A program made the position numbers and the translations under genes. This document shows positions 1 to 51,994 of a DNA stretch of 64,000 nt, in pieces. The notes under the pieces were generated by a model. That model was not told the DNA's origin. It ran no database searches and saw only the letters and a list, made by a program, of their open reading frames with translations. This DNA comes from a virus: IMG/VR virus record IMGVR_UViG_3300009502_000036, positions 14,092-78,091 of that record; one strand, 5' to 3'. Positions within the stretch are counted from its first letter, which is position 1, and every line of letters starts with the position of its first letter.

Positions 1-278
1 ACGATCTGTCTATATTTTCAATAACAGAGTTAAAAAAAGAATCAAAGGCATATATGATTCTTACAATTAACATATTTTGTAAATATGAATAGTTTTCTTA
101 TTGTAGTAGAAATTTTTCTTGCTGTCTTATTAATAAAAAGAGTATATAGAGATGTTAAAAACTTTCTTATATATTTACAAAAAGAAATTCGAGAGAAAGG
201 AGTAATGACTCTAGGACAGAACGGGAAGAAAATATGGACATTAAAGAAATGGTTTTTAATTTTTAAATTTTTCGAAAA

Positions 279-458
279 ATGAAGATTTCTAGAGTATTTT
301 TGATCATTTTGGCTTTGATTTTGCAGGTCGTGTCTGTAAAGTATAATATCGTATTGTGGTCTCTATTTTATCCTCTTAGTATGTTATCAGGATTTATTAT
401 GGGATTTGTTGTATTTGATGATATGTTTGAAATAATTATTAAAAATAAAATAAAATAA
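279..458 (+). CDS. small hypothetical membrane protein (59 aa, not in ORF track)
   Basis: ATG279 to TAA458 translated by hand; two hydrophobic stretches; overlaps the stop of ORF 85..282. Confidence 0.5.
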   Translation: MKISRVFLIILALILQVVSVKYNIVLWSLFYPLSMLSGFIMGFVVFDDMFEIIIKNKIK

Positions 459-461
459 AAT

Positions 462-731
462 ATGCCTACAGAACTAGAAACAAAAGTAGAATTTCTACTA
501 CAAGAATATAGACTTGCTGGTGAAGCATTATTTGATGTAAATATTGCTGGAACTCCAGAATTAGAAGAAATGTCCGATGAATTGGTAGATTCTATCCGAA
601 GTGCATTTGCAACTGGATATTCATTTGGAGCACTATCTGTTCTTCAGACAACCTTTAAAGGAATAGCAGAAAAAGAACCAGAAACGTTAATACAACCAGT
701 AAAATCAAACATTATAATAGGAAAGTTTTAA
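462..731 (+). CDS. hypothetical protein
   Basis: 89-aa ORF in a tightly packed + strand run. Confidence 0.6.
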   Translation: MPTELETKVEFLLQEYRLAGEALFDVNIAGTPELEEMSDELVDSIRSAFATGYSFGALSVLQTTFKGIAEKEPETLIQPVKSNIIIGKF

Positions 732-941
732 TGAAATTTCTTACTGATTCATTGTATAGAATTGATTTTCCTGAAGAAGATAATAAAACGGACTTCTTTT
801 TCAAACACCGGAAAATTTTTAAGGGAAGATTCAGGCAGTCTTTAATGTATGGAATTCTTGGTAAAATGACTCTTGCATTTTATGTTGCCATATTATTTCC
901 TGGTATTTTTTTAAAGAAATATAAAAAGAAAGACTTTTAAA

Positions 942-1184
942 TTGTGTATTATGAAAACTAATTCAGTTAAAGTTGAAGAATGGGAAATAATGGCTAGGTC
1001 TATTTCTAGAAGGGTTTTACGAGTATTAGACTTAAAAAATATTTCTAAAGAATCTTTAAGCGAAAAACTTGATATTTCAAAAGAAAGAGTTGAAGATATT
1101 CTTAATAGTAAAGAAGATCTTACACTTAAAATGATAGCAAAAATCGCAGATGCACTGAATGTGCGTCTTTTCGATATAATGTAA
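942..1184 (+). CDS. XRE/Cro-like helix-turn-helix protein
   Basis: ISKESLSEKLDISKERVEDILNSKEDLTLKMIAKIADALNV fits the XRE HTH pattern; true start probably ATG951. Confidence 0.8.
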   Translation: MCIMKTNSVKVEEWEIMARSISRRVLRVLDLKNISKESLSEKLDISKERVEDILNSKEDLTLKMIAKIADALNVRLFDIM

Positions 1185-1193
1185 AGGATAATT

Positions 1194-1844
1194 ATGTTAG
1201 TATATCAAGCACCATATCGAGATTGGATAGGTCCATATCAAATAGCAGAAGCACTTTGTTTTTGGGTTCCCAAAACAAAGGATGAACTCGGCAATGAAGA
1301 ATTTCCTGAATGGGTAGATAATTTTGGTGAATGGTTGTCAGAAACACCACTTTTACCCCTTTGTAATTGGATTGAAGAAAATATTAAAAGAATTGTTCAT
1401 GTTCATATTGATAAATATGATACGTGGAATATGGATTCAACTTTAACGCCAATTATTCTTCCGCTATTAAAACAATTAAAGGAATCTCAGCATGGAGCTC
1501 CACATGTTGATGATTGTGATGTTCCGGATAATCTAAAATCATCTGCCGCACCAGAAAAACAGAATGACTGGGATATAGATGATCTTCATTTTGCACGTTG
1601 GGATTGGGTTCTTAACGAAATGATTTGGGCATTTAATGAACTTAATGGTGATTGGGAAAATCAATTTCATACTGGTAATATAGATTTTCAGTTTGAAAAA
1701 GATCCTGAAACTGGACATAATCTTTTAATACATGGGCCGAATCATACTGGAAAATTCGACAGTGACGGTTACACAACTCACCTAAATAGAATTAAAAGAG
1801 GTACTACATTATTTGGTAAATATTTTCAAAATCTTTGGGATTGA
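1194..1844 (+). CDS. conserved hypothetical phage protein
   Basis: 216 aa, Trp/Asp-rich, DTWNMDSTL..IILPLLKQLK motif recalled from large myophages. Confidence 0.6.
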   Translation: MLVYQAPYRDWIGPYQIAEALCFWVPKTKDELGNEEFPEWVDNFGEWLSETPLLPLCNWIEENIKRIVHVHIDKYDTWNMDSTLTPIILPLLKQLKESQHGAPHVDDCDVPDNLKSSAAPEKQNDWDIDDLHFARWDWVLNEMIWAFNELNGDWENQFHTGNIDFQFEKDPETGHNLLIHGPNHTGKFDSDGYTTHLNRIKRGTTLFGKYFQNLWD

Positions 1845-1921
1845 AATAGCAATTTTAGAGGCAATTATTGTAGAAGATCCTGTTGCATCCAGTGACATAG
1901 AAAATGTAATTAAAAAATAAT

Positions 1922-1950
1922 AAAAAGCTATTCTTTGAATAGCTTTTTTT
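1922..1950 (+). terminator. intrinsic terminator hairpin
   Basis: aaaaagctattc-ttt-gaatagcttttt followed by a T run. Confidence 0.7.
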
Positions 1951-1984
1951 GTTTATATTAAATTAATAAACAAAAAAAACAAAT

Positions 1985-2647
1985 ATGAAAAATATACATA
2001 AAGTGGTAGTAGGATCAAGACTTCATGGTCTAGATAATCAAGATTCCGATTACGATTATAGAGGTGTTTTTAAAGTAGATTTAATTGATATTTTATCACC
2101 ATTTAGAAAAACACAAAACACTTCTTGGATAGAAGGCAAGACTGATGACACTAATTACGAGTTAATAAATTTTGTCAAAATGTGTGCAACGGGTAATCCT
2201 TCTGCACTAGAGGTTATCTGGTCTAACAGAATAGTAGAAACTACCGATATTGGTATGGAACTAGTTACAAATAGACAAAAATTTTTAGACGATGAAAAGA
2301 TATATTTTGCTCATCTTGGATATGCAGAAAATCAAATAAAGAAAATGGATCTTTATAATCCAGATCCAAAAAGAACACCAAAGACTATCATTGCCTATAT
2401 TAGATCGTTAAGACAGGGAATAGAATTATTGGATAGTGGAGATTTTAATCCAGTTTATGAATATCCGGACAGAGATTTTCTTTTAGAAATAAAAAATAAT
2501 TTCAATTCTTCTTTAATACCGAAAGTTACTACTTTAATGCACAAAGTAAGACAGGAACTAGAGTGCTTAAAAGCTTTTCGTGGATTTATTCGTAAAGCGG
2601 ATATTGAATGGATAGAAAATTTTATTTTAAATGCTTATTCAAAGTAA
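1985..2647 (+). CDS. DNA pol beta-superfamily nucleotidyltransferase (T4 NrdC.11/YcgL-like, RNA-repair associated)
   Basis: VVGSRLHGLDNQDSDYDYRGVF = GS..G....SDxD motif; GNPSALE motif. Confidence 0.85.
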   Translation: MKNIHKVVVGSRLHGLDNQDSDYDYRGVFKVDLIDILSPFRKTQNTSWIEGKTDDTNYELINFVKMCATGNPSALEVIWSNRIVETTDIGMELVTNRQKFLDDEKIYFAHLGYAENQIKKMDLYNPDPKRTPKTIIAYIRSLRQGIELLDSGDFNPVYEYPDRDFLLEIKNNFNSSLIPKVTTLMHKVRQELECLKAFRGFIRKADIEWIENFILNAYSK

Positions 2648-2826
2648 TATTATGGCAGATAAACATTATAAAAGATTAGATGAGGAACATATCGATGCAA
2701 TAGACTCTGCTATTTTCAATGGTGACATTTTCTTCAATATCGAAAATATTATTGAATTTCGTTATATTATGGCACGTTGGGAAAAAGAACTACATGTCTG
2801 GGAAGAAAGAATAAAGGAATGCGAAA

Positions 2827-3252
2827 ATGATAATTTATAACATTAACGAGGACATTTTCTCTAAATGTGAAGACCTTTATAATAAAGAAGCTCTTACATT
2901 TAACCCGATGATAAAAACTGTATCGGAAATACTAAGAAAAGTTTCAATTGGTTGCCCAGCTTTGGTTGTGAAAGATAGTTTACATTCGAAATCAAAAGCT
3001 ATAAAAATACATACAACAAAACATCTAACATTTAATATGGCTGATAGTGTAGATATTTTTTTTACTATAAAAAATAAAGATATTATGGAATGGGTATACA
3101 ATAATTTTCATTCCGATAAAGAATTGTCACAGTATATTATAACTTTAAATCCAGAAAAGATTCTTGATGATTTATCGCTATATGTAAGTTGTTTTTATAA
3201 AGATGAATGGTATATTCTAGTCCCAAGTGTTTTAGTTAGAATTTATTACTAA
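2827..3252 (+). CDS. paralog family A protein
   Basis: HTTKHLTF ... FYKDEWYILV motifs shared with neighbouring ORFs. Confidence 0.65.
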   Translation: MIIYNINEDIFSKCEDLYNKEALTFNPMIKTVSEILRKVSIGCPALVVKDSLHSKSKAIKIHTTKHLTFNMADSVDIFFTIKNKDIMEWVYNNFHSDKELSQYIITLNPEKILDDLSLYVSCFYKDEWYILVPSVLVRIYY

Positions 3253-3593
3253 CATTTCTTATTTTATTTCATGAAAAAGAAATAATTGAAAAGTTAACAA
3301 ATACTAAAATAACTCTTCAGATAGAATGTACTGATTTTAGAATAAAAAAGCTTAAAGAATTAAGATTTATAATGAAATGATTGAAGAACAAATAAAAGAT
3401 AGAAAATATAAATTTCCCAATCACGATTATGTAGCAGATTGGAATATGAGGAAAAGGCTGACGGAACTTTCAAAAAATCAATTTGTATATGCTTATGAGC
3501 ATGAAAATATGTTAGATTATATTAAAAATATTTCGAATGTTTATGTTCTAGGAGCATATTGATTTCGAGATTTAAATTGTGATTAACTTTTAA

Positions 3594-3926
3594 GTGTTTC
3601 TGCAAAATTATTTAAATAATTCTACAATGAAAATGAAATATAAACTTGGCTATAAAGGAATGTGGGGAAGTGATGTTTATTTTTTAGAGGGTTTTCCATC
3701 TTCTATAGATAAAATTTACGCTATTTATATAAATGACACGAGAGTTTCCGTGATAAATGGCAAAGTAGGCCATGTAGAAGATTCTGATTGTGTTCCTACA
3801 TATTCTAATCATTTTTATATTCAGATAGATGTCTTTGGCGTACTTATCGACATTGATATAAACAAAATTGTTAATGAAATTGATGTTTATGTTAAAACAG
3901 AAGATGTTTCATTTTTAGCCACATGA
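3594..3926 (+). CDS. hypothetical protein
   Basis: 110-aa ORF, ATGA-coupled to the next gene. Confidence 0.5.
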   Translation: MFLQNYLNNSTMKMKYKLGYKGMWGSDVYFLEGFPSSIDKIYAIYINDTRVSVINGKVGHVEDSDCVPTYSNHFYIQIDVFGVLIDIDINKIVNEIDVYVKTEDVSFLAT

Positions 3927-4234
3927 CATACATAGTGAAAAAGGGTACACCCGGAGTAGCATATAATATAATTGAAAGCACTATAGTTATACTTAAAACT
4001 ACTAAAGATTTAACTTTTAACCGTAGATCGGATAGTGATGTTAATGATCATTATTTAGGAGATGTTGGTGGAGAAAGATTGTGGAATGTTATCTTGGACT
4101 GTTATCACTCAGATATGTCTCTTATTAAATCAACAAATTTTGAAAATATAAAAGTACGGGATCTTAATGTATTTGAAGAAGATTTTTGGTTGTTGTTTGT
4201 CCATCGAGATTTAGTGACTTTTACCACAAAATAA
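3923..4234 (+). CDS. paralog family A protein
   Basis: KKGTPGVAY, TTKDLTF, FEEDFWLLFV. Confidence 0.7.
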   Translation: MTYIVKKGTPGVAYNIIESTIVILKTTKDLTFNRRSDSDVNDHYLGDVGGERLWNVILDCYHSDMSLIKSTNFENIKVRDLNVFEEDFWLLFVHRDLVTFTTK

Positions 4235-4260
4235 TTTTTTATAATCAATAGAATAATTTG

Positions 4261-4281
4261 TATATTATATTACGTGAATAA
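4261..4281 (+). promoter_or_regulatory. putative early promoter motif TATATTATA (copies at 4261, 5268, 7427, 9388, 10517, 18568, 24483)
   Basis: TATATTATA recurs in intergenic gaps ahead of gene starts, often preceded by AAAA; three copies are followed shortly by TGAAyAA. Confidence 0.6.
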
Positions 4282-4475
4282 ATTATAGATGGAGAGTATA
4301 GCATGATTGAAGTTTATCAAAAAATAAAAGACATTTTATATAATGCAGTAGAACAGTCAGAGTCAGAATATTATGGGTTTTCTGGTATTCCTGAAGATTC
4401 TCTTTATGATACTCTTAAACAAATTATGGAAGTTGTTAATTCTTATAGAGATAACGAAACATCAAAAAATAATTT

Positions 4476-4757
4476 ATGAATAACTTTTTCATACCAAAAG
4501 GAACCTTTGGTATTGCATATGATACATCGGAAGGGAATTTTGTTGTATTAAGTACGAGTAAAGATTTAAATTTCCTAGAAAGGAGTGATTCTAAAGTAAC
4601 GAGATTAGGTGATCTTTGGTGGGATGTTCTACAAATATTTAGAGGTAATTTCATTACTGGCATGGATAATCAAATTTCAGTAACTGATATATTTGCCTTT
4701 GAAAAAGACGAATGGTTCTTATTTATACACCAAACTAAAATTAAATACGAAGAATGA
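4476..4757 (+). CDS. paralog family A protein
   Basis: PKGTFGIAY, TSKDLNF, FEKDEWFLFI. Confidence 0.7.
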   Translation: MNNFFIPKGTFGIAYDTSEGNFVVLSTSKDLNFLERSDSKVTRLGDLWWDVLQIFRGNFITGMDNQISVTDIFAFEKDEWFLFIHQTKIKYEE

Positions 4758-5011
4758 CTTTTTATTTTACCAGGTTCTCCTATATTAGCTTATAGTATTA
4801 TAGATCAGCGTCTAACTTATACTAAGACTTCTAAACTTTGGCAGTTTGATAAAACATCAGAGGGGAATTTTCCAGGCAACTTCCCGATTTAATGCTTGAT
4901 GTTCATGACTATTTTAAAAGAATAGATTCTAATTATATTAATATAGAATACATATATACTTTTGGTATTAAAGATTGGCTTTTGTTTATTAATAAAAGAG
5001 AACTCAAATGA
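4754..5011 (+). pseudogene. frameshifted paralog family A member
   Basis: Reconstructs to MTF/ILPGSPILAY..TKTSKLWQF../..FGIKDWLLFINKRELK; one extra T in the run near 4759-4763 plus a second shift near 4885. Confidence 0.6.
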
Positions 5012-5251
5012 AACTTTTTGTTATAGAAAAAGGAATTGAAGTACTAGCTTATAAAATAAAATCAGATTTGGTGTATTCTATAACTACGAGTAAAATAAGT
5101 TTTTTTTTGTAAAAAATCGGAGAATTCTATATCAGAAGAATTGCTTCTTATAGCAGAAGGAGTATGCGGACAGGTATTCGCTGATATTTTAGTTTTTGAA
5201 AAGGATGGATGGTTATTGTTTGCAGATAAAGAAGAAGTTCAATATTTTTAA
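5008..5251 (+). pseudogene. frameshifted paralog family A member
   Basis: MKLFVIEKGIEVLAY..TTSKISFF/CKKS..FEKDGWLLFADKEEVQYF; single shift in the T9 run 5100-5108. Confidence 0.7.
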
Positions 5252-5507
5252 TTTACAGCAAAAAGTTTATATTATACTATATGAATAATTTATAAACAGA
5301 AAATACATCATGCAAAGAGAAAACAATGATACAATTTGGGGAGCGTTCGCGCTTTACATAACAAATCAGGAACTAGTGATTACAAAAACAGACATATTGC
5401 AACTGTTTAAATCTAATCCGGACGTCATTAAAAATGAAATTAGAGAAAATTCAGAAGAGTCTCTACTTTTTCCTAAAACTTATGTAATGTGCATAAACTA
5501 AATTATA

Positions 5508-6527
5508 ATGAAAATTGACATTAAAGAATTAGACAGACTACATAAAGAGAAACTTTTAGAAAAGCAAGTTCATCCTATTCTTCCTTTGACTATTTGGAAT
5601 TATAGTCAGACTTGTCAGTATGATAATTTGTGGACATCTACTCTTTTGATGTGTCGTGGACTCGTAACAGACGTAGAAGGAAACGTAATTGCTCGTCCAT
5701 TTAAAAAATTCTTTAATTTAGAAGAAAAGAAACATGTACATACGGAAAATTTTACGATTTGGCACAAAGAAGATGGTTCCTTGGGTATTATATTCTTCTA
5801 CAATGGGGTATGGCACATCTGCTCTCGTGGGTCTTTTACTTCTGATCAAGCTATCAAAGCAAAGGAGATGCTTGAAAAAATCAAAGACAAAGAGAAGTAT
5901 CTTAAAAAAGAACTCACTTACCTGGTAGAAATTATTTATCCAGAAAACAGAATTTGCATAGATTATGGACAAACAGAAAAACTTATTTTACTAGGCGCTG
6001 TAGATATAGAAACTGGCGCAGAAGTTAATCCTACAAAAATTTCTCAATGTATTTTTGAAATACCACAGCAGGAATATTTCACTGACTATTCTCAGATTGC
6101 ATGGCTAGACTGGGAAAATAAAGAAGGTTTTGTTGTTCATTTTGACAACGGTAATAAATGCAAGATTAAATTTGCTAATTATTTAAAAAAGCATAAAATA
6201 ATATGGAATCTCACAAACAAATTGATTCACGAACATCTTGTTAACGGTAACATCGAAGAATTGTTGGATCAAATACCAGATGAATTTTATTCTATCGTCA
6301 AAGAAGAAATTTATGAATTTAATAAAGAATATGCTATCATATTAAGTTCAGCGATGGTTGCTTTTAATGATGCACGAAAGTTAGAAACACGTAAAGAATT
6401 TGCTGCGGAAGCACTTAAATATGAATATCCTCAGGTTCTTTTTGCTATGCTTGATAAAAAGAACTATGAAGGTGTTATTTGGAAAATACTTGAGCCCAAA
6501 GTTTCAATACGTATATTAACGAAATAA
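5508..6527 (+). CDS. rnlA: RNA ligase 1 (T4 RnlA family)
   Basis: CRGLV..ARPFKKFFN, KEDGSLGI (motif I), SRGSF, EGFVV, KIK motifs. Confidence 0.9.
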   Translation: MKIDIKELDRLHKEKLLEKQVHPILPLTIWNYSQTCQYDNLWTSTLLMCRGLVTDVEGNVIARPFKKFFNLEEKKHVHTENFTIWHKEDGSLGIIFFYNGVWHICSRGSFTSDQAIKAKEMLEKIKDKEKYLKKELTYLVEIIYPENRICIDYGQTEKLILLGAVDIETGAEVNPTKISQCIFEIPQQEYFTDYSQIAWLDWENKEGFVVHFDNGNKCKIKFANYLKKHKIIWNLTNKLIHEHLVNGNIEELLDQIPDEFYSIVKEEIYEFNKEYAIILSSAMVAFNDARKLETRKEFAAEALKYEYPQVLFAMLDKKNYEGVIWKILEPKVSIRILTK

Positions 6528-6534
6528 GGTTAAA

Positions 6535-6828
6535 ATGGGATATAGTGTATACAAAGGTACTCGTGGAATAGCATACGACGTTAGAAATGAAATTTTTGTT
6601 AAAATACAAACGAAAAAAGATCATCACTTTCATCATTCTAATTTTGGAATCGAATTTGATGAAATTGTTAGTTGTATGATACGTGAAGTATTTGATAAAA
6701 ATTATGTGAAACTTGAACTCTATTTTCCTGAATACGAAACTGGAAGAGGTTCTATTATACCGTTTAAAAGATCAGATTGGTATTTAATGGTATCTAATTT
6801 TAATGTAATATCTTATGTTGGTAAATAA
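6535..6828 (+). CDS. paralog family A protein
   Basis: YKGTRGIAY, TKKDHHF, FKRSDWYLMV. Confidence 0.7.
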   Translation: MGYSVYKGTRGIAYDVRNEIFVKIQTKKDHHFHHSNFGIEFDEIVSCMIREVFDKNYVKLELYFPEYETGRGSIIPFKRSDWYLMVSNFNVISYVGK

Positions 6829-7114
6829 CGCGACTACCTTTAAAGTTAATAAAGGTGTTTCTGTAATAGTTTTGCAAGAAATAGGTTTAAATGCTATTAA
6901 TGGCACTATATTATCAACTGAGTTTAAAAAAATTCGTACGACTAAGGATTTGATTTTTTTCCCAACAGAAAGAATAGGAAAATCTTCTTGGATAAATTTA
7001 GTTCAATCCTTTAGAGATTCGCTCATAAAAACTGATAAATCATTATATCACTGTTTTCGTAGAGACGGTTGGTTTATTTTTATCAATAAATCAGATATCT
7101 TAGAAATAGTTTAA
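6815..7114 (+). CDS. paralog family A protein
   Basis: VNKGVSVIV, RTTKDLIF, FRRDGWFIFI. Confidence 0.7.
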   Translation: MLVNNATTFKVNKGVSVIVLQEIGLNAINGTILSTEFKKIRTTKDLIFFPTERIGKSSWINLVQSFRDSLIKTDKSLYHCFRRDGWFIFINKSDILEIV

Positions 7115-7130
7115 GCGAAGGAGTTTTTCC

Positions 7131-7418
7131 ATGTTAAAGGTTTGTAAAGGAACTGAATGCGTTGTAATAAATAAATCTTTCTGTTCGGAAAAATATATTA
7201 TTGATGGAATAATAAATGAAAAATTATTTAAATTTATACGAACAACTAAAAATTTAGAATTTAGTGGAGAAGAAGAAAAGCTTTACGACGATTTTCCTAT
7301 TCTTTTTGACAGTTTTGATGAGTTGTTTTATGACTTTGGCACTCCGGATATATATAATTGTTTTGAAAGAGAAGGTTGGTTTGTATTTTTTGAGAATTTT
7401 CCTGTTACATATTGTTAA
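7131..7418 (+). CDS. paralog family A protein
   Basis: VCKGTECVV, RTTKNLEF, FEREGWFVFF. Confidence 0.7.
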   Translation: MLKVCKGTECVVINKSFCSEKYIIDGIINEKLFKFIRTTKNLEFSGEEEKLYDDFPILFDSFDELFYDFGTPDIYNCFEREGWFVFFENFPVTYC

Positions 7419-7479
7419 ATTATTATTATATTATATCATAGGTCTATAAGTGAAAGTAGTTAAATCTAAATAAATTGAA

Positions 7480-9330
7480 ATGAACATCCCTTTCCACTCT
7501 GTCAAACAATTAGAATCACAAATAGTAGTGGCTAGTACAGCATATTATGAAGGCATTGCTATTATGACAGATGAAGAGTTTGACTGCATGATAAAAGCTC
7601 TAAAAGATTGTAATCCTAATTCTTCAATTCTCAAGACCGGTTGGGGATATGTACCTAAAGATAGAATAGTTGAACATATTGGCAGTGAGGTTGGATCACT
7701 AGATAAAATCCAGATAGCTAACTATATAGATAGAAAAACCGTTATAGCTACTCCTAAATACGATGGACTTACTGCAGTAGTATATTTTGAAGATGGTAAA
7801 TATGCTAAAGGTGTAACTAGAGGTGATGGTAAATTAGGACAGGATATTTCCTCTAAATTGAAGTGGATAATTGAGAATACTACTGAGGCTAATCTTGATG
7901 ATATAGTATTTGATGGTACATCAATAAGAGGTGAGGTAGTTGTACCATTGGTATATGAGTCTGATGTATTATCCTTAGGATATTCAAATACAAGAAACTT
8001 TGCTGCAGGAGTTATGAATACTAAGGAGGATGACTATGAGTTACTTCGTTATCTTCACTTTGTTCCATATACTATCAGAGATAGTAAGTTATCCAAATGG
8101 CAATGTTACGAATTTTTTTATGAAAAAAATCTTATAACTCCATGTCAAGTAGGATTAATTGAGAATATATTAGACTCGGAAAGCCTAAGGTTAGTATATA
8201 ATAAATGGAGAGAGATATATCCAATAGATGGAATTGTATTAACAAAAGAATTTTCTGAGGATATTGACAACGACTCATATGCAGTAAAGTTTGAGACAGA
8301 AGAAAAGCCCGCCGTAGTTGATACTGTTGAGTGGAGTACGCGATCAACAGGAGCTGTGATACCTGTGGTTATATTAAAGGAGCCTATCAAGATTCATGGA
8401 GCTAATATCCAGAGGCTTAGTGGATATAATTGGAAATATATCACTGATAATAAAATTGGACATGATGCGGAGATCATTATTACCAGAGCAAATGAAGTAA
8501 TACCTAAAATACTTAACGTCACTAAACCATCCAGTACGGTAGTTTGGCCACATGAGTGTCCTGTATGTGGAAGTCCAACATCAGTACAGAGTGTTCATCT
8601 TATATGTGAAAATCCACTATGCCCATCTGTACAGATTAATCAAGTACATGCATTTTTAACTAGATGTGATATTGATAAGGGTATCGGTCAGACTACATGG
8701 GATAAATACTTTGAACATTTTAGTGTAGGTAATTTCTTTGATTTTGTAAATAGTGTAAGAAACTATGATGGTAATATACAGCACTTGGAATTTCTTGGAG
8801 ATAGTATGTCTAAGAAGGTTGCCCAGGCTATTACAGTTATTGGGAATAAAATCAAGAATATTACTTATGAGGATATACTAGTATCAATGAACATTCCAGG
8901 TCTTGGAACTACACATGCTAAGACTCTTGGTCAATACACTTTCCAAGAATTAAAGGATAAGAGTATAAGTGAGAATAATAATCTTGGAACTAATGTAACA
9001 GTTGGAAGAGAGATATCGAACAAAATAGATGATCTAATAATGTTAGTAGATATTCTCTGGCCCACTAATCCCCCTACTATTACAGTGCCTATTAATATTA
9101 CGGGAATAGAGGTATGTATTACTGGTAAGCTGGAGTATGGTACTAGAGATAAATTTGCAAAAGCAATAGAGTCATATGGATTTATATCTGTTGATGGAGT
9201 GAATAAGAATACCAAATATCTAATCTGCAATTCCACTTCTTCATCCAGTAAATCTAAAACTGCTAGTAAATTAGGAGTACCAGTGATATCTGAACAAGCA
9301 TTTTTAGATCACTTTAATATTGTACTATGA
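7480..9330 (+). CDS. ligA: NAD-dependent DNA ligase
   Basis: AYY..MTDEEFD (domain Ia), KYDG, TRGDG..G.D, RGEV, RNFAAG, DGIV, Cys4 zinc finger CPVCGS..CENPLC, C-terminal BRCT (VCITGKL). Confidence 0.93.
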   Translation: MNIPFHSVKQLESQIVVASTAYYEGIAIMTDEEFDCMIKALKDCNPNSSILKTGWGYVPKDRIVEHIGSEVGSLDKIQIANYIDRKTVIATPKYDGLTAVVYFEDGKYAKGVTRGDGKLGQDISSKLKWIIENTTEANLDDIVFDGTSIRGEVVVPLVYESDVLSLGYSNTRNFAAGVMNTKEDDYELLRYLHFVPYTIRDSKLSKWQCYEFFYEKNLITPCQVGLIENILDSESLRLVYNKWREIYPIDGIVLTKEFSEDIDNDSYAVKFETEEKPAVVDTVEWSTRSTGAVIPVVILKEPIKIHGANIQRLSGYNWKYITDNKIGHDAEIIITRANEVIPKILNVTKPSSTVVWPHECPVCGSPTSVQSVHLICENPLCPSVQINQVHAFLTRCDIDKGIGQTTWDKYFEHFSVGNFFDFVNSVRNYDGNIQHLEFLGDSMSKKVAQAITVIGNKIKNITYEDILVSMNIPGLGTTHAKTLGQYTFQELKDKSISENNNLGTNVTVGREISNKIDDLIMLVDILWPTNPPTITVPINITGIEVCITGKLEYGTRDKFAKAIESYGFISVDGVNKNTKYLICNSTSSSSKSKTASKLGVPVISEQAFLDHFNIVL

Positions 9331-9461
9331 GGAGCTTCTTTCTTGAAATAAGTATCAAAAAATATTTTGTGTTTAGTGGAAAATGATTATATTATAAAGT
9401 CGAGTAATTTAAAAGAAACTTCTTTTCTATTGCTTCATCTTAATAAATTTTAGTTTATAAT

Positions 9462-9800
9462 ATGCAACACATTAAAGAGGGAACATTTGGTATTGCTTAT
9501 TGTTATATTGTAAATCATGTTCACTATGACAAATACGTAAAATTAAATACTTCTATGGATTTATATTTTAATAAAAATGTAACCAAAATAGGAAAGTCTA
9601 TTTGGGCTCACGTTTTTGGTTTATATAAGAGTGATTACATACTACAGAATGTTATAAAAGAAATGTTAGCAAAAATACATCCGCAACCTATAGAGGATTT
9701 TATTACTGTTATTGATAAAGATGGATGGTTATTTTTTTTCCAACAAAAGAAATTATATCAGAAAAAGATATTTTTGAGTTTTAAATTACCGTTTGATTAA
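9462..9800 (+). CDS. paralog family A protein
   Basis: IKEGTFGIAY, TSMDLYF, IDKDGWLFFF. Confidence 0.7.
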   Translation: MQHIKEGTFGIAYCYIVNHVHYDKYVKLNTSMDLYFNKNVTKIGKSIWAHVFGLYKSDYILQNVIKEMLAKIHPQPIEDFITVIDKDGWLFFFQQKKLYQKKIFLSFKLPFD

Positions 9801-9804
9801 AGAA

Positions 9805-10172
9805 ATGTCATATACTATTTTTAAAATACTATCGCGATTGTTTTAAGAATAAAACCCGAAGACTGTTATTTTTGTGTTGGTACTAAAAAATATACACGAA
9901 GATTTCACGATACCAACACAAAAATAACATTTATACATACAACAAAGGAACTAATATTTGAGGAGATGATGAATGCAGATGAGCTTAAACATTTATATTA
10001 TCGTATTAAACACGCGGTTTTACCGAAATCTTCAGAATACGTAAACTCATTTCATGAAAAACAATGGAGTTTTTTTAACAAATTAGATGAAACTGGCAAT
10101 TGGATGCTTATAGTTCCTTCTAATAAAGTCTTTAAAGATTTTTTAAACAAACCATATGCCAGTAGTTTATAA
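9805..10172 (+). pseudogene. frameshifted paralog family A member (track ORF 9966..10172 is its 3' half)
   Basis: MSYTIFK/NTIAIVL..HTTKELIF..ETGNWMLIVPS; one A missing in the A4 run near 9823-9826; parallels 10156..10479. Confidence 0.65.
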
Positions 10173-10479
10173 AAACACACCAGCAATTGTGGTTCACAAA
10201 CCACACATAGATTCAAATTTGTCTATAGAAAGTATTGAATATTGGATAGATGCTAAAATAATAAGCATGTTCACAACAAGGGATATTCATTTTAAAGAAC
10301 AGGTTTTTTATTTACCATTTTATATACGCAATAAGATATGTTATAAAATAGACAGTTCCATCAATATTTCCTACGCATTTCGAAACAAGGGAAAGACTTT
10401 TTTTAAACGTGAAGATGAAAACGGAATTTGGTTTCTTGTTGTTCCTTCAGATTATCAGTTATTGATGAGAATTGAGTAA
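10156..10479 (+). CDS. paralog family A protein
   Basis: VYKNTPAIVV, FTTRDIHF, FFKREDENGIWFLVVPS. Confidence 0.65.
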   Translation: MPVVYKNTPAIVVHKPHIDSNLSIESIEYWIDAKIISMFTTRDIHFKEQVFYLPFYIRNKICYKIDSSINISYAFRNKGKTFFKREDENGIWFLVVPSDYQLLMRIE

Positions 10480-10559
10480 AAAGTTGTGAAAAATTTTTTA
10501 TTTAAGTAAAAATGGTTATATTATACTAGTTGAACAATTAAACAAAACTAGGAGATTAT

Positions 10560-11549
10560 ATGAGAGGACGTACTGCAAAAGCCGCAATTTTAGCAGCAGA
10601 AAAATACACAGAAGTTGGTGCTGCTAAAAGGGAAGTGAAGGTGCAAGCTCCAATTGTTCCAAAGAAAAGAATTAAAGGTCAGAAAGTAGTGATGGATGCA
10701 GAATATTTTGCACGTCTTGATCTAGAAGTTGAAGCACAACAGGAAGCTAGGAGAACTCGTACTGTAGTTGTTCCTAAGGAAGAAGATCCTAAAATAAAAT
10801 TATCAAAACAAATTACAAGTCTTCTTGGAGAACTCGACGAATTTGTAGACGAGGCTTTCGAAAAGAAAAATACTCCCAAATTCAATATCATCGCGTGGTT
10901 AAAAGAAAAAAACTTTGTAGACGATGAACACATTGAAGCTATTAAAAAGACGTATAGCAAACACCGCGCTGAACTTCAGGAAGCATATGATAAAGTATGC
11001 CCTCAGATGGTGGAAGGTTATTCCTTCCTCAATCCTACTCAAAAGAAAAAGATTTTAGATTTCTTTGATACTATTCTTAACGGATGCGATGATTTTCTTA
11101 ACTTGCGTAGAAGGAAGAAAAGTATTGATAGAAAACCTCATTTTGCAAAGCCGTTAAGTGTTCAGAAGCAGGTGAAAACTCTAAAATATATGAAGGAAGC
11201 ACCAGAATTTGGTGTTATTTCTATATCTCCGCAAGATATTGTTGGAGCAAAAACACTTTGGCTATTTAACACTGCATACAAACAACTTAGTTATTACCAA
11301 GCAACTGATTATACAGGATTTAAAGTGAAAGGTTGTTCTCTTCTTAATTGGGATACAAAATCATCGAAAAGAAAATCTCTTAGGAAACCATTAGAAACTC
11401 TTAAAGCTGTTATGGGTGCAAATGGTAAAGAAATTCAGGATATTATGGACAAACTGACTACTAAAAGTGCAAGTGTTAATGGACGAATTAATGATAAGGT
11501 AATTATCCTTAAGGTTGGAAAAGAACTTATAAAAGGTCAACAGGTTTAA
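10560..11549 (+). CDS. conserved hypothetical T4-like phage protein
   Basis: 329 aa; EGYS, IVGAKTLWLFNT, VKG.SL, LRKP, NGRIN motifs recalled from T4-like cyanophage hypotheticals; preceded by the promoter motif. Confidence 0.65.
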   Translation: MRGRTAKAAILAAEKYTEVGAAKREVKVQAPIVPKKRIKGQKVVMDAEYFARLDLEVEAQQEARRTRTVVVPKEEDPKIKLSKQITSLLGELDEFVDEAFEKKNTPKFNIIAWLKEKNFVDDEHIEAIKKTYSKHRAELQEAYDKVCPQMVEGYSFLNPTQKKKILDFFDTILNGCDDFLNLRRRKKSIDRKPHFAKPLSVQKQVKTLKYMKEAPEFGVISISPQDIVGAKTLWLFNTAYKQLSYYQATDYTGFKVKGCSLLNWDTKSSKRKSLRKPLETLKAVMGANGKEIQDIMDKLTTKSASVNGRINDKVIILKVGKELIKGQQV

Positions 11550-11678
11550 TGCAGAAAAGCTTCAGAGAGTGACCCAGATGAATTATTATCTGTTATTTGA
11601 TATAACATATAGCAATGATTTTTAACTCTCTCTTTGAACGTTTTATTTGCTGAATGTAACTATTAACATCACAAAAGA

Positions 11679-11969
11679 ATGAAAGATATATTAGGAAAAG
11701 ATTTAAATGTCGGTGATACCGTAATTATAATAGTACCAAATTATAGGGAATTAGCTAAAGGTATTATTATACGCTTCACAAAGCAGTATGTATTTGTACA
11801 ATATGAGACTCGACGGTATAAAGGTCAAATTTTAGAAATAAAACAAAGGCCTGATCAATTGGTAAAAATTATTGAATATGATGAAAACGTTGAATTGCTC
11901 TTAAAAAGATATGGAACTCCTATGGTAATGCTTACATCGGGAGATAACAAATTGACTACAAAAAATTAA
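11679..11969 (+). CDS. hypothetical protein (possible SH3/KOW-like fold)
   Basis: MKDILGKDLNVGDTV N-terminus common in small phage proteins. Confidence 0.5.
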   Translation: MKDILGKDLNVGDTVIIIVPNYRELAKGIIIRFTKQYVFVQYETRRYKGQILEIKQRPDQLVKIIEYDENVELLLKRYGTPMVMLTSGDNKLTTKN

Positions 11970-11988
11970 TCTTTAAATTAGTTATATT

Positions 11989-12300
11989 ATGAATGAAGCA
12001 AAATTTACACCTGGACCATGGAAATTTCGGCAGCATTCCGTCGATTCACAATATTTTGGCAATATAACAGGAACTTATGGAAAAACTCCCGAAGGATATA
12101 CTTCTATAAGAACAGTTGCGTTGAATTTGAATCATGGAACAGAAGAAGAGAACATGGCAAATGCTAAATTAATAGAAGCAGCTCCTGTTATGTATAATGC
12201 TTTAAAGGATATTAGAGATATTTTTGAATCGCATGGACAAGAAATGTTTAGTAATTCGGTTAGAGAAATAGATAAAGTTTTATTGCAAGCCCGAGGTTAA
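11989..12300 (+). CDS. hypothetical phage protein
   Basis: KFTPGPW...ANAKLIEAAPVMYNAL, a widespread phage motif. Confidence 0.65.
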   Translation: MNEAKFTPGPWKFRQHSVDSQYFGNITGTYGKTPEGYTSIRTVALNLNHGTEEENMANAKLIEAAPVMYNALKDIRDIFESHGQEMFSNSVREIDKVLLQARG

Positions 12301-12604
12301 AAATGATAATAACTACTAACGTCTTTGTTGCAGCGCATGGTCTAATGATCATTTGTTTTGTATTGTTTTTGTGTATTAGAAAATAAGTTTAAAACCAAAT
12401 AAACAATGGAAACGAAATTTACCAAAGGTCCTTGGTCAATAAATCCTGAAATTAGATACTCTATTATATTTGCTATGGTTGCGGGCTCTACAGGATCTAT
12501 AGGACTATTGCAATTTTTAATTTTATTATTTATTGTGAATGCGATTTCTATTATAAGTATTATAATAGGTATTAACACTGACAAAGAAATTTAATTTCTA
12601 TATT

Positions 12605-13174
12605 ATGAGTTATATTAAAATATCGACCGATAAAGTTTTAAATGCTTGTGATAAATATATAGCAGCTTGTGAAGAATCTGTTAAAATGTCACGTGAAATT
12701 TTAATAAAATGGCAAATGAAATGGAGCATTTTTAATTTATTTCCAGCAAATAACGAAACTATTGCGCAACAAAGAGCCGAGAAAAGAGAAAGTTGGTATT
12801 GGGTTCTAAATCATCAAAGTAAATCTTTACACATTATAGATAATGTAAAAATTCTTTGCAAATTATCTGAAAACGGTACTATAATGTTATCAAATGATGC
12901 TGTGGACATTTTAGAACATTTTCTAGATGGATCTGTGGATCTCTTTAAATGTTTTGATAAAGAATCGATAACAGTTGAAGAACTATATAATCGCGCGTAC
13001 GATGAAAAGATAGCAAAACAACGTGATAGAATTAATAAGCTTGAAGAAGCTTTGTTGTCTATAGCAGAAGGTATAGACAATTTTCCTAAAACAAATATAC
13101 TCCCAAGAACAACTCTTATTTATAAGCTTATTCAATGGGATTTTGAAAACGAAAAATGGAAAGATGACGAATGA
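12605..13174 (+). CDS. hypothetical protein
   Basis: 189-aa ORF. Confidence 0.55.
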   Translation: MSYIKISTDKVLNACDKYIAACEESVKMSREILIKWQMKWSIFNLFPANNETIAQQRAEKRESWYWVLNHQSKSLHIIDNVKILCKLSENGTIMLSNDAVDILEHFLDGSVDLFKCFDKESITVEELYNRAYDEKIAKQRDRINKLEEALLSIAEGIDNFPKTNILPRTTLIYKLIQWDFENEKWKDDE

Positions 13175-46584: not shown

Positions 46585-48768
46585 TTGGCAAATAAGAAAA
46601 TAACAGAACTACAGAGACTCTATCCATACGAGATGACATCATCTGATTGGATGATTATCGTAAATGGTTCGGGTTCTGGTTTAGAAACTAAGAAAGTTTC
46701 TGTAGGTGATCTATTTAATGGTAGCACTTTAACTAGTAATGTTTCTTTTGGAAATACTGCTCTATTTGTAGATACATTAAATAAGAGAATTTCTATTAAT
46801 GGAATGCCTTATTTAACAAATAAATTTAGTGTTTATGGTGATTCTTTCATTGATGGTAATATTTTTGCTACAGGAAAGATAACTGTACAAGGTGACTTAG
46901 AAATTGGAAATACAGATACCGATAAAGTTACATTCAATGCGGATATATCATCTAGTCTCATTCCTCTTACATCAAATACTTATAATTTTGGTACTACAAC
47001 AAAATATTGGAATGATTTATTCATAAAAGATGTTTACGTAAAAAGAGATATAGATGTAATTCGTAATGGTATTTTTCATTCTAATGTTTCTATTACAGGA
47101 AATACAACAATAGGTAAAACTCTTGATGTAGGTCAGACTTTAGATGTTACTGGTAATACAATTTTGTGGTCAGATCTTGCTGTAAATGGAGGTGACATGA
47201 CCACAAATCAGACAACCTTCAATATATTAAATAATACGGCAACCACCATAAATGCGTTTGGGGCTGCAACTACTCTTAATATTGGTTCTTCAAATGGTAC
47301 TGCTACATTTAAAAATATTGCATCATTTAGTAAAGATGTTACTATTACAGGAAATTTAAATGTTTTGGGAGCAGCATCGATAGATTATCTCTATGCAACA
47401 GGAAGATCAACATTTACTTTAAGAAAAGATGAGGTCGTCGCTGGATCTGGTAGTATTATTATACATTCAGGTTCAGGTTTAGGACAAGACAGAACTTTTC
47501 AATGGGATAATACAAATAATAGATGGAGTTTAGATAATAACACCTATGTTTCTGGTACTTTTATTTGTACAGGAAATATTACTACAAGTGGAGATCTTGC
47601 TGTAAATGGAGGTGACATGACCACAAATCAGACAACCTTCAATATATTAAATAATACGGCAACCACCATAAATGCGTTTGGGGCTGCAACTACTCTTAAC
47701 ATAGGAGTTTCTGGTGGTAATGCCACATTTAATAGCAATTTAATTGTGACTGGAGATCTAACAGTAAATGGAACTACCACAACAATAAATGCTACTACTT
47801 TAGTAGTAACGGATAAAAATATAGAGATAGGTAAAGTTACTACCCCTACAAATATTACAGCGAATGGTGGTGGAATAACTTTACATGGAGCTACTGATAA
47901 AACAATTATTTGGGATAGTGCTAATAGTAATTGGTCATCAAGTGAAGATTGGAATCTCCTTAGCAGTAAAGTATTTAAAATAAATAATGTTTCTGTATTA
48001 AGTTCTACTACACTTGGTTCTACCATAACGGGTTCATCCTTAACTTCGGTTGGTACAATTACAAGCGGTACCTGGTCTGGTAATTTTGGAGCAGTTAGTG
48101 GATCTAACTTAACTTCATTAACTGCTGGTAATTTGAGTGGCACGATTCCATCAGGAGTATTAGGTAATTCCACTGTTTATATCGGTACCACAGCAGTTCT
48201 CTTAAATAGAATTTCAGGGGCACTTGCATTAACAGGAATTACTAGTATTGATGGTAACGCTGCAACCGCAACTACATCTACTAATCAATCTGGTGGTACT
48301 GTATCAGCTACTACTGGTTCTTTCTCAGGAGTTGTTACCCATAGTATATCTACAGGAACTGCACCGTTTTCAATTACTTCTACTACAGTAAATACTAATC
48401 TTAATGCAGATTTACTTGATGGTCAACATGGAAGTTATTTTGCACCTATAGCAGCACCAGATTTTACTGGTAATCATATAGGAATACCGAGTGGTGCAAC
48501 TTCGGCAAGACCAACTGGTGCAACTGGATATTTTAGATTTAATACTGATCTAATTTCATTTGAAGGATATAATGGTACTTCTTGGGGTAGTGTTGGAGGT
48601 GGTGCAACTGGTGGTGGTACAGATCACGTATTTGTAGAAAATGACATACACGTTACAACATCATATACAATAACAAGCGGGAAAAATGCACATAGTGCTG
48701 GCCCTATAACTATAGACAGTGGTGCTGTTGTTACTATTCCAACAGGCTCAGTCTGGATAATTTCTTAA
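46585..48768 (+). CDS. tail fibre protein
   Basis: ANKKITEL N-terminus, GDL.VNG repeats, NLNADLLDG, RFNT....FEGYNG..W; late promoter at 46545. Confidence 0.8.
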   Translation: MANKKITELQRLYPYEMTSSDWMIIVNGSGSGLETKKVSVGDLFNGSTLTSNVSFGNTALFVDTLNKRISINGMPYLTNKFSVYGDSFIDGNIFATGKITVQGDLEIGNTDTDKVTFNADISSSLIPLTSNTYNFGTTTKYWNDLFIKDVYVKRDIDVIRNGIFHSNVSITGNTTIGKTLDVGQTLDVTGNTILWSDLAVNGGDMTTNQTTFNILNNTATTINAFGAATTLNIGSSNGTATFKNIASFSKDVTITGNLNVLGAASIDYLYATGRSTFTLRKDEVVAGSGSIIIHSGSGLGQDRTFQWDNTNNRWSLDNNTYVSGTFICTGNITTSGDLAVNGGDMTTNQTTFNILNNTATTINAFGAATTLNIGVSGGNATFNSNLIVTGDLTVNGTTTTINATTLVVTDKNIEIGKVTTPTNITANGGGITLHGATDKTIIWDSANSNWSSSEDWNLLSSKVFKINNVSVLSSTTLGSTITGSSLTSVGTITSGTWSGNFGAVSGSNLTSLTAGNLSGTIPSGVLGNSTVYIGTTAVLLNRISGALALTGITSIDGNAATATTSTNQSGGTVSATTGSFSGVVTHSISTGTAPFSITSTTVNTNLNADLLDGQHGSYFAPIAAPDFTGNHIGIPSGATSARPTGATGYFRFNTDLISFEGYNGTSWGSVGGGATGGGTDHVFVENDIHVTTSYTITSGKNAHSAGPITIDSGAVVTIPTGSVWIIS
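47172..47699. repeat. 108-bp exact direct repeat within the tail fibre gene
   Basis: 47172-47279 = 47592-47699, 420 bp apart. Confidence 0.9.
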
Positions 48769-48778
48769 CGATAAAATA

Positions 48779-49279
48779 ATGGCTACTCAAATAGATGGAA
48801 GTTTAGGAATTAATAAAGTTAATCCAACAGCATTACCAGGTATTATGCCTGCTGGAAGTGTGTTGTAGGTTGTGAGTGCTACTTATAGTACTATTGAAAA
48901 TACATCATCAGTAACATTTTCTAATACTGGAATAACAGCAACTATTACACCTAATAGTATAACAAGTAAAATCTTAGTGTTAGTTAGTATTAACGGTTGT
49001 GGAAAATATACTACAAATACAGCTGGTGCATTAAGAATTATAAGAAACTCAGTTCCAATAATAAATATAGATAGCATGATAGGATACACAAACAATACAA
49101 ATACTGTAGATGGATCAAGTTCCGCAACAATACTTGATTCACCAAGCACAACAAGTTCTATTACATATACAGTACAAAAAGCATCAAGTTCCAATAGCAA
49201 TTATTTTTATATAAACGATTACTATAATACAATAGGTCCCACAACTTCAACTATAACCTTGATGAAAATAGCAGGATAA
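48779..49279 (+). pseudogene. tail-fibre-associated gene interrupted by an in-frame TAG
   Basis: ATG48779 reads MATQIDGSLG...PAGSVL*VVSATYS with TAG at 48866-48868 where the usual motif is GSVLQVV; in frame with track ORF 48872..49279. Confidence 0.75.
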
Positions 49280-49298
49280 CAACAAAACAAATACTAAA

Positions 49299-49682
49299 AT
49301 GAAACCAACAATTATAACAGCAATACAGGCACTAATTCCTAATGTGTCTATAGCAATGTCGTCTGATGTTACATATGATACGGGATGGGATTTCCCACAT
49401 GCTAAGTCTGTATTTACAGACTCAGATAACAACCCAGTGGTTATCTGTTGGGAGCAGTATACAGTTGCTCCATTAACACAAGAACAAGTTAATGCAGAAA
49501 TCAACAGACTGCAGAGTGAGTATGATAACACAGAGTATCAAAGACTTCGTGCATTAGAATACCCTGATATGTATCTATATTTAGATGCTGTAGTCAAGGG
49601 AGATTTAGTTCAACAGCAACTCTACATTGATCAATGTCTTGCTGTCAAGGCAAAGTATCCTAAACCAACAGGAGTGGTATGA
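49299..49682 (+). CDS. fibre-associated/assembly protein
   Basis: EYQRLRALEYP...LDA...C.AVKAKYPKP, common after phage fibre genes. Confidence 0.65.
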   Translation: MKPTIITAIQALIPNVSIAMSSDVTYDTGWDFPHAKSVFTDSDNNPVVICWEQYTVAPLTQEQVNAEINRLQSEYDNTEYQRLRALEYPDMYLYLDAVVKGDLVQQQLYIDQCLAVKAKYPKPTGVV

Positions 49683-50275
49683 GTGGATCAGTGAATTTAG
49701 TTAGTTCAGGTGGTGGTAGTGTAGCTATCATCCCTCCAAATACAGCTTCGGATTACACGCTGACAGCTCCAGCAAGTACAGGCGTTATAGCACAAGTATT
49801 AGTTGGTGAAGTCAAAGCCTTTATTACAGGCACAGTACCAACAGGATACTTGGAATGTGATGGTGCATCAGTAAGCACAACCACTTATGCGGGACTATAT
49901 GCCATTATTGGTTACACCTATGGTGGTTCCGGTGCATCCTTTACCCTTCCAGACTTCAGAGGCAAATTCCTTCGTGGATGGGCACATGGTTCTGCTAATG
50001 ACCCTGATGCAGCCAGTCGTACAAATAGAGGCGATGGGACAACGGGTGATCATGTTGGTACGTTGCAGGGGAATCAATATGTCTCGCATACTCACGCGCC
50101 GACGATTGGTCGGAACGGATCATCAGGAGGAAGTAACGTCGTCTGCGTAGTTACCACTACGGGAGTCTATGTGGCACCTGCGTATGGGGACACTGGCGGC
50201 ATAGCAATTGTTGCGTCAGGCGGCAACGAAACCCGCCCAATCAACATCAACGTCATGTACATAATCAAATACTAA
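49679..50275 (+). CDS. tail collar domain fibre protein
   Basis: PTGYLECDG, Y..LYAIIG.TYG, F.LPDFRG.FLRG, SHTH, ETRP.N....YIIKY. Confidence 0.9.
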   Translation: MSGSVNLVSSGGGSVAIIPPNTASDYTLTAPASTGVIAQVLVGEVKAFITGTVPTGYLECDGASVSTTTYAGLYAIIGYTYGGSGASFTLPDFRGKFLRGWAHGSANDPDAASRTNRGDGTTGDHVGTLQGNQYVSHTHAPTIGRNGSSGGSNVVCVVTTTGVYVAPAYGDTGGIAIVASGGNETRPININVMYIIKY

Positions 50276-50276
50276 A

Positions 50277-50609
50277 ATGAAAATATATAGTTACACAAAC
50301 ACTGGTGAATATATATATTCACAAGACGCATCTCTTGACCCTCTTGAATTAGAGTTAAATGGTAAGGAAATATACCTACTTCCTGCATTTGCAACTTTTG
50401 AAGTTCCACCTGAACCACAGGAAGGCAAGTTAATTTTGTGGGCAGGTAAATGGGAGCTAATTGATATACCTAAACCTATTATTCAAGAAGAACCTATTGT
50501 TCCACCATTATCAAAAGAAGAGCAAGATGCTATTGATTTAGAGGTTCTTATCCAGGATAAAATAAGACAACAGGCTATTGAAGCACTTAAAGCAGAAGGG
50601 AAGATATAA
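50277..50609 (+). CDS. tail fibre assembly-like protein
   Basis: YSY...GEY, DPLE, LLPA.AT...PP, W...W; follows the collar gene. Confidence 0.65.
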   Translation: MKIYSYTNTGEYIYSQDASLDPLELELNGKEIYLLPAFATFEVPPEPQEGKLILWAGKWELIDIPKPIIQEEPIVPPLSKEEQDAIDLEVLIQDKIRQQAIEALKAEGKI

Positions 50610-51836: not shown

Positions 51837-51841
51837 TAAGT

Positions 51842-51859
51842 TTAACCAATGACGGTTAA
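51842..51859. other. candidate DGR target-recognition hairpin downstream of VR
   Basis: ttaacc-aatgac-ggttaa, 6-bp stem about 25 nt after the VR. Confidence 0.45.
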
Positions 51860-51875
51860 TGAGATAAGAAGTATT

Positions 51876-51994
51876 ACGCGCCCTAAATTCAGCAGTAATT
51901 GGAATAACAGTGTGATTTGCAGTTCGCGTAGTTCTAAATGGAATAATGACACTCTGAATCTGAATTCTAATAATGCGAGTCAGGGTTGCACGGA
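51876..51994 (+). ncRNA. DGR template region (TR)
   Basis: AAT/AAC-rich copy of the VR lying between target gene and RT. Confidence 0.95.

Follow-up and report, generated by a model that had tools for sequence, protein, structure and literature searches.

What does a phage do with a dozen small, related genes that match no known family, and why are several of them frameshifted? The question is raised by positions 2827 to 10479 of a 64,000-nucleotide stretch of viral DNA (the window), which spans bases 14092 to 78091 of the 78,091-bp IMG/VR virus record IMGVR_UViG_3300009502_000036. An initial annotation, made from the sequence alone, had described an eleven-member family there, with three fixed motifs separated by hypervariable middles. 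Here, we report that the region holds a genuine, old, phage-specific multigene family, with twelve copies in the record and eleven in the window, which was hitherto undescribed and whose function we infer. Our best guess, to which we give an even chance, is that the copies are diversified binders acting in host takeover or counter-defence.

Family membership

Copies are named here by their start positions in the window; coordinates prefixed L001 lie upstream of it. All eleven open reading frames (ORFs) or ORF remnants that had been claimed were found in place, and the three motifs could be aligned in every one of them, with T, F, and W invariant. The eight intact ORFs (2827, 3923, 4476, 6535, 6815, 7131, 9462, and 10156) aligned end to end, with the motifs present. 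One profile united all copies: in leave-one-out (LOO) hidden Markov model (HMM) searches, all but one of the eight intact window copies, together with a twelfth copy, were recovered at E values of 1.2e-15 to 2.7e-8, and the three broken copies were recovered when read through with X at their breaks (E values listed below). Copy 10156, the most divergent, escaped detection at default filters and needed an unfiltered search with a 21-sequence profile to reach E 2.2e-5; it pairs with its sister, copy 9805, by BLASTP (1e-8).

The twelfth copy (E 1.3e-15) was found by searching an HMM of the eight intact copies against all stop-to-stop segments of the whole record, and lies 2.3 kb upstream of the window. 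The same scan retrieved fragments of the three broken copies and no further segment below E 0.8, so that the count of eleven stands for the window and falls one short for the record. ORF 3594-3926 and the other small ORFs interleaved with the copies were considered as members and excluded, with zero HMM hits. The copies are as follows (P numbers denote protein clusters or alleles from the searches described below; values in parentheses after tree partners are branch supports).

2827..3252, + strand: copy 1, long form, 141 aa; LOO E 5.6e-11; N-terminal extension of ~36 aa before the domain; T8 run at 3056; tree partner, foreign P0012 (95/90)
3923..4234, + strand: copy 2, 103 aa, intact; LOO E 6.5e-14; start codon and the stop of the preceding ORF share ATGA
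4476..4757, + strand: copy 3, 93 aa, intact; LOO E 4.6e-13; structure modelled; 40% identical to copy 2
4754..5011, + strand: copy 4, two frameshifts, one at a T5 run (4759-4763) just past the ATG and the second near 4870-4885; E 3.3e-6 with X; probably a pseudogene
5008..5251, + strand: copy 5, +1 frameshift at a T9 run (5100-5108); E 8.5e-10 with X
6535..6828, + strand: copy 6, 97 aa, intact; LOO E 2.7e-8; downstream of the Rnl1-type RNA ligase gene
6815..7114, + strand: copy 7, 99 aa, intact; LOO E 1.9e-10; 14-nt overlap with copy 6; tree partner, foreign P0016 (96/84)
7131..7418, + strand: copy 8, 95 aa, intact; LOO E 2.8e-9
9462..9800, + strand: copy 9, 112 aa; domain intact through the W motif, tail beyond a T8 run (9732-9739) out of frame relative to the T9 allele P0036
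9805..10172, + strand: copy 10, one-base loss in an A run (9823-9826); E 5.3e-4 with X; an intact and a third allele in the population
10156..10479, + strand: copy 11, 107 aa, intact; scored against the other 21 sequences
L001:11748-12266: copy 12, long form, 172 aa

Predicted fold

Two members were modelled with AlphaFold2. Copy 4476 (model 1; eight-row alignment; pLDDT 84, pTM 0.77) was predicted with strands at residues 3-6, 11-16, 21-26, and 31-34, a helix at 47-58, and strands at 72-77, 80-85, and 90-92. The twelfth copy (model 2; 26-row alignment) had the same order of elements, a domain pLDDT of ~90, more helices in the insert, and a low-confidence stretch over its first 50 residues. 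Both models thus predict, with confidence, the same beta-rich domain interrupted by a helical insert that varies, in keeping with the beta-rich scaffold that had been proposed. The middles are not featureless, as a helix is predicted there in both models. By these models, each protein would fold into a single compact domain, in which a variable helical insert separates a four-stranded beta meander from three further strands.

Mapped onto model 1, KGT.G(I/V)A covers the turn between strands 1 and 2 together with strand 2, T(T/S)KDL.F covers the turn between strands 3 and 4 together with strand 4, and F.(K/R)DGW.(L/I)F forms the strand 5-6 hairpin. The three motifs are therefore predicted to be beta-hairpin turns with core aromatic residues, and as such to define the scaffold. 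Length varies in the strand 2-3 loop (0 to 15 extra residues) and in the helical insert (15 to 50 residues). In a meander, one edge carries turns 1-2 and 3-4, and the opposite edge carries the 2-3 loop together with the end of strand 4; the models therefore suggest one conserved and one variable pole, with the loop and the insert facing away from at least two of the conserved turns.

Calculated pI ranges from 4.3 to 9.7 and net charge from -12 to +5 across members. The proteins are probably cytoplasmic, because no signal peptide or membrane segment was evident by eye. Ten of the 12 copies begin directly at strand 1; an N-terminal extension is present in the other two. The long forms (2827, the twelfth copy, and foreign P0012, P0013, P0017, P0018, and P0021) carry a short N-terminal motif, [IL]-x-[ED]-x-F/I, joined to the domain by a low-confidence, low-complexity linker.

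Searches for known relatives

The initial annotation did not recognise the family, and neither did the databases. Pfam gave nothing above cut-off for the 22 family members described below, and no Pfam family was matched by more than one of them; PHROGs gave a best E of 0.002 with no recurrent family, PADLOC zero matches, and PDB sequences a best E of 0.19. No housekeeping domain was matched in the Pfam or PDB-sequence searches. The Pfam models that cover part of the anti-defence families were not matched either, no curated anti-defence library having been searched. A single member of the 22 reached an SH3b/GW profile (SH3b_P2, E 0.021, below cut-off). No match was found by tblastn of P0012 against GenBank phages, by related-locus searches with single family proteins in viral, metagenome, and genome collections, or, beyond what the exhaustive search had returned, by a word-based homologue search with the family profile.

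Structure searches were likewise unproductive. Foldseek against PDB and BFVD returned no match at E <= 0.001, and the ESM Atlas gave no usable match by features, its own models of the family being poor. VIA-align was run as an exhaustive pass over 48,161 chains; with this tool Z < 8 possibly reflects only a common arrangement, the usual background being Z 7 to 8. The top rows were both 5cxf_A (human cytomegalovirus gB domain II, PH-like), at Z 5.1 (71 aa, 3.0 Å) and Z 4.5 (79 aa, 3.4 Å), not well separated from the rows beneath and below the tool background. SH3-like barrels were scattered at Z 2.2 to 4.2 (model 1, 9ovi_B at Z 4.2 [60 aa, 3.5 Å] and 3h41_A at Z 4.0; model 2, Z 3.5 to 3.7), all below the stated noise level. 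Either a new fold or a heavily decorated small barrel would fit these results.

Distribution and age

A filter-free HMMER search of 1.84 billion representative proteins returned 22 clusters at E <= 0.001, nine from this phage and thirteen foreign (P0010-P0022, 89 to 261 aa). The foreign clusters are all without names and originate from Logan, ENA, or NCBI assemblies, and none of the 22 members is fused to a known domain (Pfam). Because the sizes of their longest contigs match (220,918 bp for P0018 and P0011; 93,702 bp for P0013, P0017, and P0028; 11,217 bp for P0010, P0015, and P0020; 22,712 bp for P0016 and P0027; 7,871 bp for P0023 and P0014), foreign members apparently occur two to three per contig.

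On a maximum-likelihood tree, the window copies were scattered among the foreign homologues (8 label changes) and formed one clade in 0% of bootstrap trees. In addition to the partners of copies 2827 and 6815 given above, copy 9462 grouped with P0010/P0011 (84/90); 3923 and 4476 made the only window-specific pair. The interleaving of paralogues with foreign homologues indicates that the family expanded before these phages diverged and that each paralogue has been retained since. Duplication, as originally proposed, is therefore upheld, and recent diversification is not. Nor did the hypervariable middles hold up: in 90% clusters, variants of the intact copies lie 0 to 4 residues from the window sequences, with no concentration in the insert. 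The middles that had seemed unalignable are best read as a product of old divergence, and neither the tree nor the population variants gave a sign of rapid or ongoing hypervariation.

Frameshifts and alleles

The frameshifts called in 4754, 5008, and 9805 are real. Run X7 stems from a different lake sample, one not flagged as a possible source of the record, and its contigs match the window over 4228-4967, 4946-7466, and 9168-9832 without a difference or gap; because these independent contigs are identical across the break sites, the breaks are not errors of a single assembly. Independent support for every frameshift rests on X7, as X5 covers only 2827-4952 and X1 and X2 contributed tiny pieces. 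The original calls were incomplete, in that 9462 also has a frameshifted C-terminal tail relative to the commoner population allele.

Several alleles coexist in the assemblies. For gene 9805, an intact allele (P0053, 122 aa; 55 contigs, the longest 154,232 bp), the window-type allele broken at the A run (P0054/P0055, 47 + 9 contigs), and a third allele that is open at the A run and cut at a T7 run at 10070 (P0052, 21 contigs) were found. For gene 9462, the T8 allele (P0003, the window form with the aberrant tail) was present on 49 contigs and the T9 allele (P0036) on 72; the P0036 tail, FFFPTKEIISEKDIFEF, is exactly the -1 frame of the window and restores the W..F.P ending of the family. A further allele, P0037, joins the three P0036 substitutions to the T8 tail on 2 contigs only, a hint that slippage recurs or that recombination has taken place. 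Among the population variants, an intact form of copy 5008 was not found. Judged from the protein alleles, the tract-length variants are T8/T9 at 9732, one T fewer at 10070 (P0052), and one A more at 9823 (P0053), where the run in the window is only 4 A.

Homopolymers of at least 6 within family ORFs include T9 at 5100, T8 at 9732 and 3056, T7 at 10070, 6954, and 10398, and A7 at 6926. A/T runs of at least 7 occur at 2.04/kb in the family versus 0.63/kb elsewhere (3.2-fold; 8 observed against 2.8 expected; Poisson P = 0.007), and runs of at least 8 at 0.77/kb versus 0.11/kb (P = 0.019). The T9 run of copy 5008 is the only A/T run of at least 9 in the 78-kb record.

As a separate observation on copy 5008, P0051 (one 1,128-bp ENA contig) matches this copy up to the DGW motif and then continues into sequence foreign to the entire 78-kb record; it may be a recombinant or deletion variant (window 5105-5190).

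Neighbouring genes and promoter-like motifs

The family copies are interleaved with three enzyme genes in the window:

1985-2647: RlaP-type nucleotidyltransferase
5508-6527: Rnl1-type RNA ligase
7480-9330: NAD-dependent DNA ligase

R2K ATP-grasp, radical SAM, and macro-domain genes lie just upstream of the window (L001 8966-9709, 9970-10977, and 12253-12759). Together, the neighbouring cluster looks like an RNA-repair and conflict toolkit. Against host nucleases and ADP-ribosylation, phages deploy macro domains and tRNA repair by RNA ligases. Such neighbours thus hint at conflict functions and fall short of proof.

One motif recurs in the spacers of the region:

4261..4269, + strand: promoter-like motif TATATTATA, in the spacer ahead of the unit 4303/4476/4754/5008

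Further + strand matches to TATATTATA, often preceded by AAAAA.GTT, lie at 5268, 7427, 9388, 10517, 18568, and 24483 in the window and at L001 3913, 4741, 9725, and 12840. On the + strand, 11 of the 12 matches in the record fall within spacers upstream of + strand, non-structural genes, and the structural module has none. The motif probably marks a promoter class of the phage distinct from the T4-type late motif TATAAATA, which is frequent ahead of structural genes. The late motif has zero + strand matches in window positions 1-13000, hence none at copy 2827 or any other window copy; one match (L001:11722-11729) precedes the twelfth copy, 18 nt before its ATG. A sigma-70 scan was uninformative (65 sites versus 69.8 expected). 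Many starts overlap the preceding stop, and a Shine-Dalgarno-like sequence was seen at few of them.

Source phage

The record, 38% complete (CheckV), has a GC content of 29 to 31% across most of the window. The phage, AT-rich and from freshwater, is marked as a T4-like myovirus by PHROG matches to tail proteins, the tape measure, the baseplate wedge and hub, ribonucleotide reductase, and the Rnl1-type RNA ligase. Its baseplate wedge is ~34% identical to those of the nearest cultured phages (Caulobacter phage Cr30, Pelagibacter phage HTVC008M, and Methylophilales phage Melnitz). Near-verbatim copies of the studied stretch were found in metagenomes of at least three freshwater and lake studies (dated 2016 to 2020), with no RNA dataset among those listed, and megablast gave zero matches between the region and GenBank phages.

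Three features of the record outside the family were noted. At the contig end (61930-64000), GC content rises to 52% around a 521-aa transposase (phrog_1157), so that this end is either an insertion sequence (IS) element within the phage or chimeric. GC content is 38 to 43% at 48000-52000, around a tail-protein gene (50610-51836). Upstream of the window, L001:5965-6270 is a short-period tandem repeat in which ORF 6002-6229 encodes a Gly-Tyr/Ser/Asp-rich peptide (GYGSGYGDG...); the remaining frames and the opposite strand are likewise open.

Interpretation

In the reading that we put forward, the paralogues would each bind their own target, of host or phage origin, and act in host takeover or counter-defence. 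A motif that is not of the late type heads the multi-gene units in which most copies lie, amid RNA-repair, ligase, macro-domain, and ATP-grasp genes, and from this we infer both a role and a timing. The copies would behave as conditionally dispensable accessory genes, with polymerase slippage in A/T runs turning single members off and possibly on again, as in the contingency loci of T-even phages. By analogy to T2 agt and T4 rIIA, such tract-slippage switching is plausible. Conditionally useful accessory genes are favoured over junk because the paralogues have long been retained and null alleles are nevertheless common today. In its boldest form, which we consider doubtful, the family would be a new fold serving as a modular binder scaffold in an uncultured freshwater T4-like clade, its twelve members individually toggled by A/T-tract slippage; by analogy, a repertoire of this kind would resemble bacterial phase-variable surface-protein families, aimed at host takeover or counter-defence.

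Several points weigh against the binder reading. The conserved motifs may be solely fold determinants, and the late-type motif ahead of the twelfth copy means that family members may not all belong to one timing class. At 29% GC, Phe-rich motifs (FF, FFF) may by themselves account for the excess of T runs. Relaxed selection on redundant genes would produce broken alleles just as well, and the alleles were observed as strain differences in assemblies, reversible switching within a population being a proposal only.

Plain decay of redundant genes is accordingly the main rival, for which we would allow roughly one chance in four's worth of belief: the copies would fold, and would be near-neutral passengers of a hyperplastic region, with frameshifts as one-way decay and no switch. 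In its favour, the reading frame is lost in three of the 12 copies and the tail is altered in a fourth, the two frameshifts of copy 4754 include one outside any long run, the population variants supplied no intact 5008, and Phe codons naturally yield T runs. Set against this, subfamilies are conserved across diverged phages at 25 to 40% identity with T, F, and W invariant, which requires long purifying selection on each subfamily; intact-copy variants in the population differ by only 0 to 4 residues; and the intact 9805 allele is the single commonest, although the two broken alleles total 77 contigs. That the frameshifts are homopolymer assembly or sequencing errors and all copies intact is already contradicted and very improbable. 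Most breaks do lie within homopolymer runs, but contigs of an independent lake sample and study year match the window exactly at all break sites, each allele recurs among several sources (21 to 72 contigs) and is associated with strain-specific substitutions, and the long genes of the record are open (e.g., a 2271-aa ORF).

Two further explanations concern what the proteins do, and both seem unlikely to us. The copies could be small nucleic-acid-binding barrels (SH3-, Sm-, or OB-like) that serve the RNA-repair and ligase genes, for instance as tRNA or RNA end-binding specificity factors; their interleaving with the RlaP, Rnl1-type RNA ligase, and NAD-dependent DNA ligase genes and a weak structural likeness to SH3-like barrels (Z 3.5 to 4.2) fit this idea, but those scores lie under the noise level of the tool, no RNA- or DNA-binding Pfam family was matched, and, given the wide spread of pI and charge, no common polyanion-binding surface is evident. 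Alternatively, and just as improbably, the long forms at least could be packaged in the virion and injected with the DNA, like the internal proteins of T4, with the N-terminal motif and disordered linker as a targeting or tether peptide. The motif and low-confidence linker common to the long forms, an (I/L)-x-E within the first 30 residues of four of the seven, and the TATAAATA match ahead of the twelfth copy agree with packaging; the restriction of the extension to 2 of 12 copies (short forms beginning at strand 1), the lack of (I/L)-x-E in three long forms, and the lack of a late motif at copy 2827 do not.

Comparison with known systems

The T4 internal proteins IPI-III are also a diverse set of small proteins, and the N-terminal peptide of the long forms, placed before a variable body, recalls them. 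T4 internal proteins are known to share an N-terminal targeting peptide only. In this family, by contrast, the whole domain is common, most members have no N-terminal peptide, and an (I/L)-x-E near the N-terminus, such as would end a capsid-targeting peptide, is confined to the four long forms mentioned. Bacterial SH3-like (SH3b/GW-type) barrels superpose on ~60 beta-core residues (Z 3.5 to 4.2, rmsd 3.0 to 3.8 Å, below noise level) and share a conserved Gly-Trp in a hairpin. Unlike them, the family has no profile match and is predicted to have seven strands with a 15- to 50-residue helical insert, and, unlike SH3b/GW proteins, it lacks a cell-wall context (no signal peptide, no lysin fusion).

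The locus resembles the hyperplastic regions of T4-like phages (PMC2839356, PMC4122927), which likewise hold small genes of unknown function between conserved core genes, in short, strain-variable units behind a recurring promoter-like motif. It differs in that the twelve genes here are old paralogues of one family absent from cultured phages, whereas the typical genes of hyperplastic regions are unrelated ORFans. Homopolymer contingency loci have been described in T2 agt, with a tract of 9 A, and in T4 rIIA (Gomez, Barrick and Waters 2025, 10.1101/2025.10.21.683753). Common to both systems are A/T homopolymers within ORFs with +/-1 frameshift alleles (copy 5008 has 9 T) and hits on accessory genes whose loss can pay under some host defences. 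In contrast to the T2 and T4 loci, the case here is built on alleles that coexist in natural lake assemblies and not on measured rates of mutation or reversion, the variants touch several members of one paralogue family, and the adaptive value is only proposed.

Significance

Even if the family is no more than redundant cargo, it documents birth-and-death evolution cleanly within a hyperplastic region of a phage. To our knowledge, homopolymer switching of accessory genes has so far been shown only in laboratory T-even phages; the alleles reported here are field evidence, over several lake studies, for homopolymer on/off slips in accessory genes, and would make bet-hedging testable in nature. 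If the proteins do bind host or defence proteins, the family would offer a compact, well-folding scaffold with naturally diversified surfaces and a ready-made set of twelve related probes into the biology of an uncultured freshwater host.

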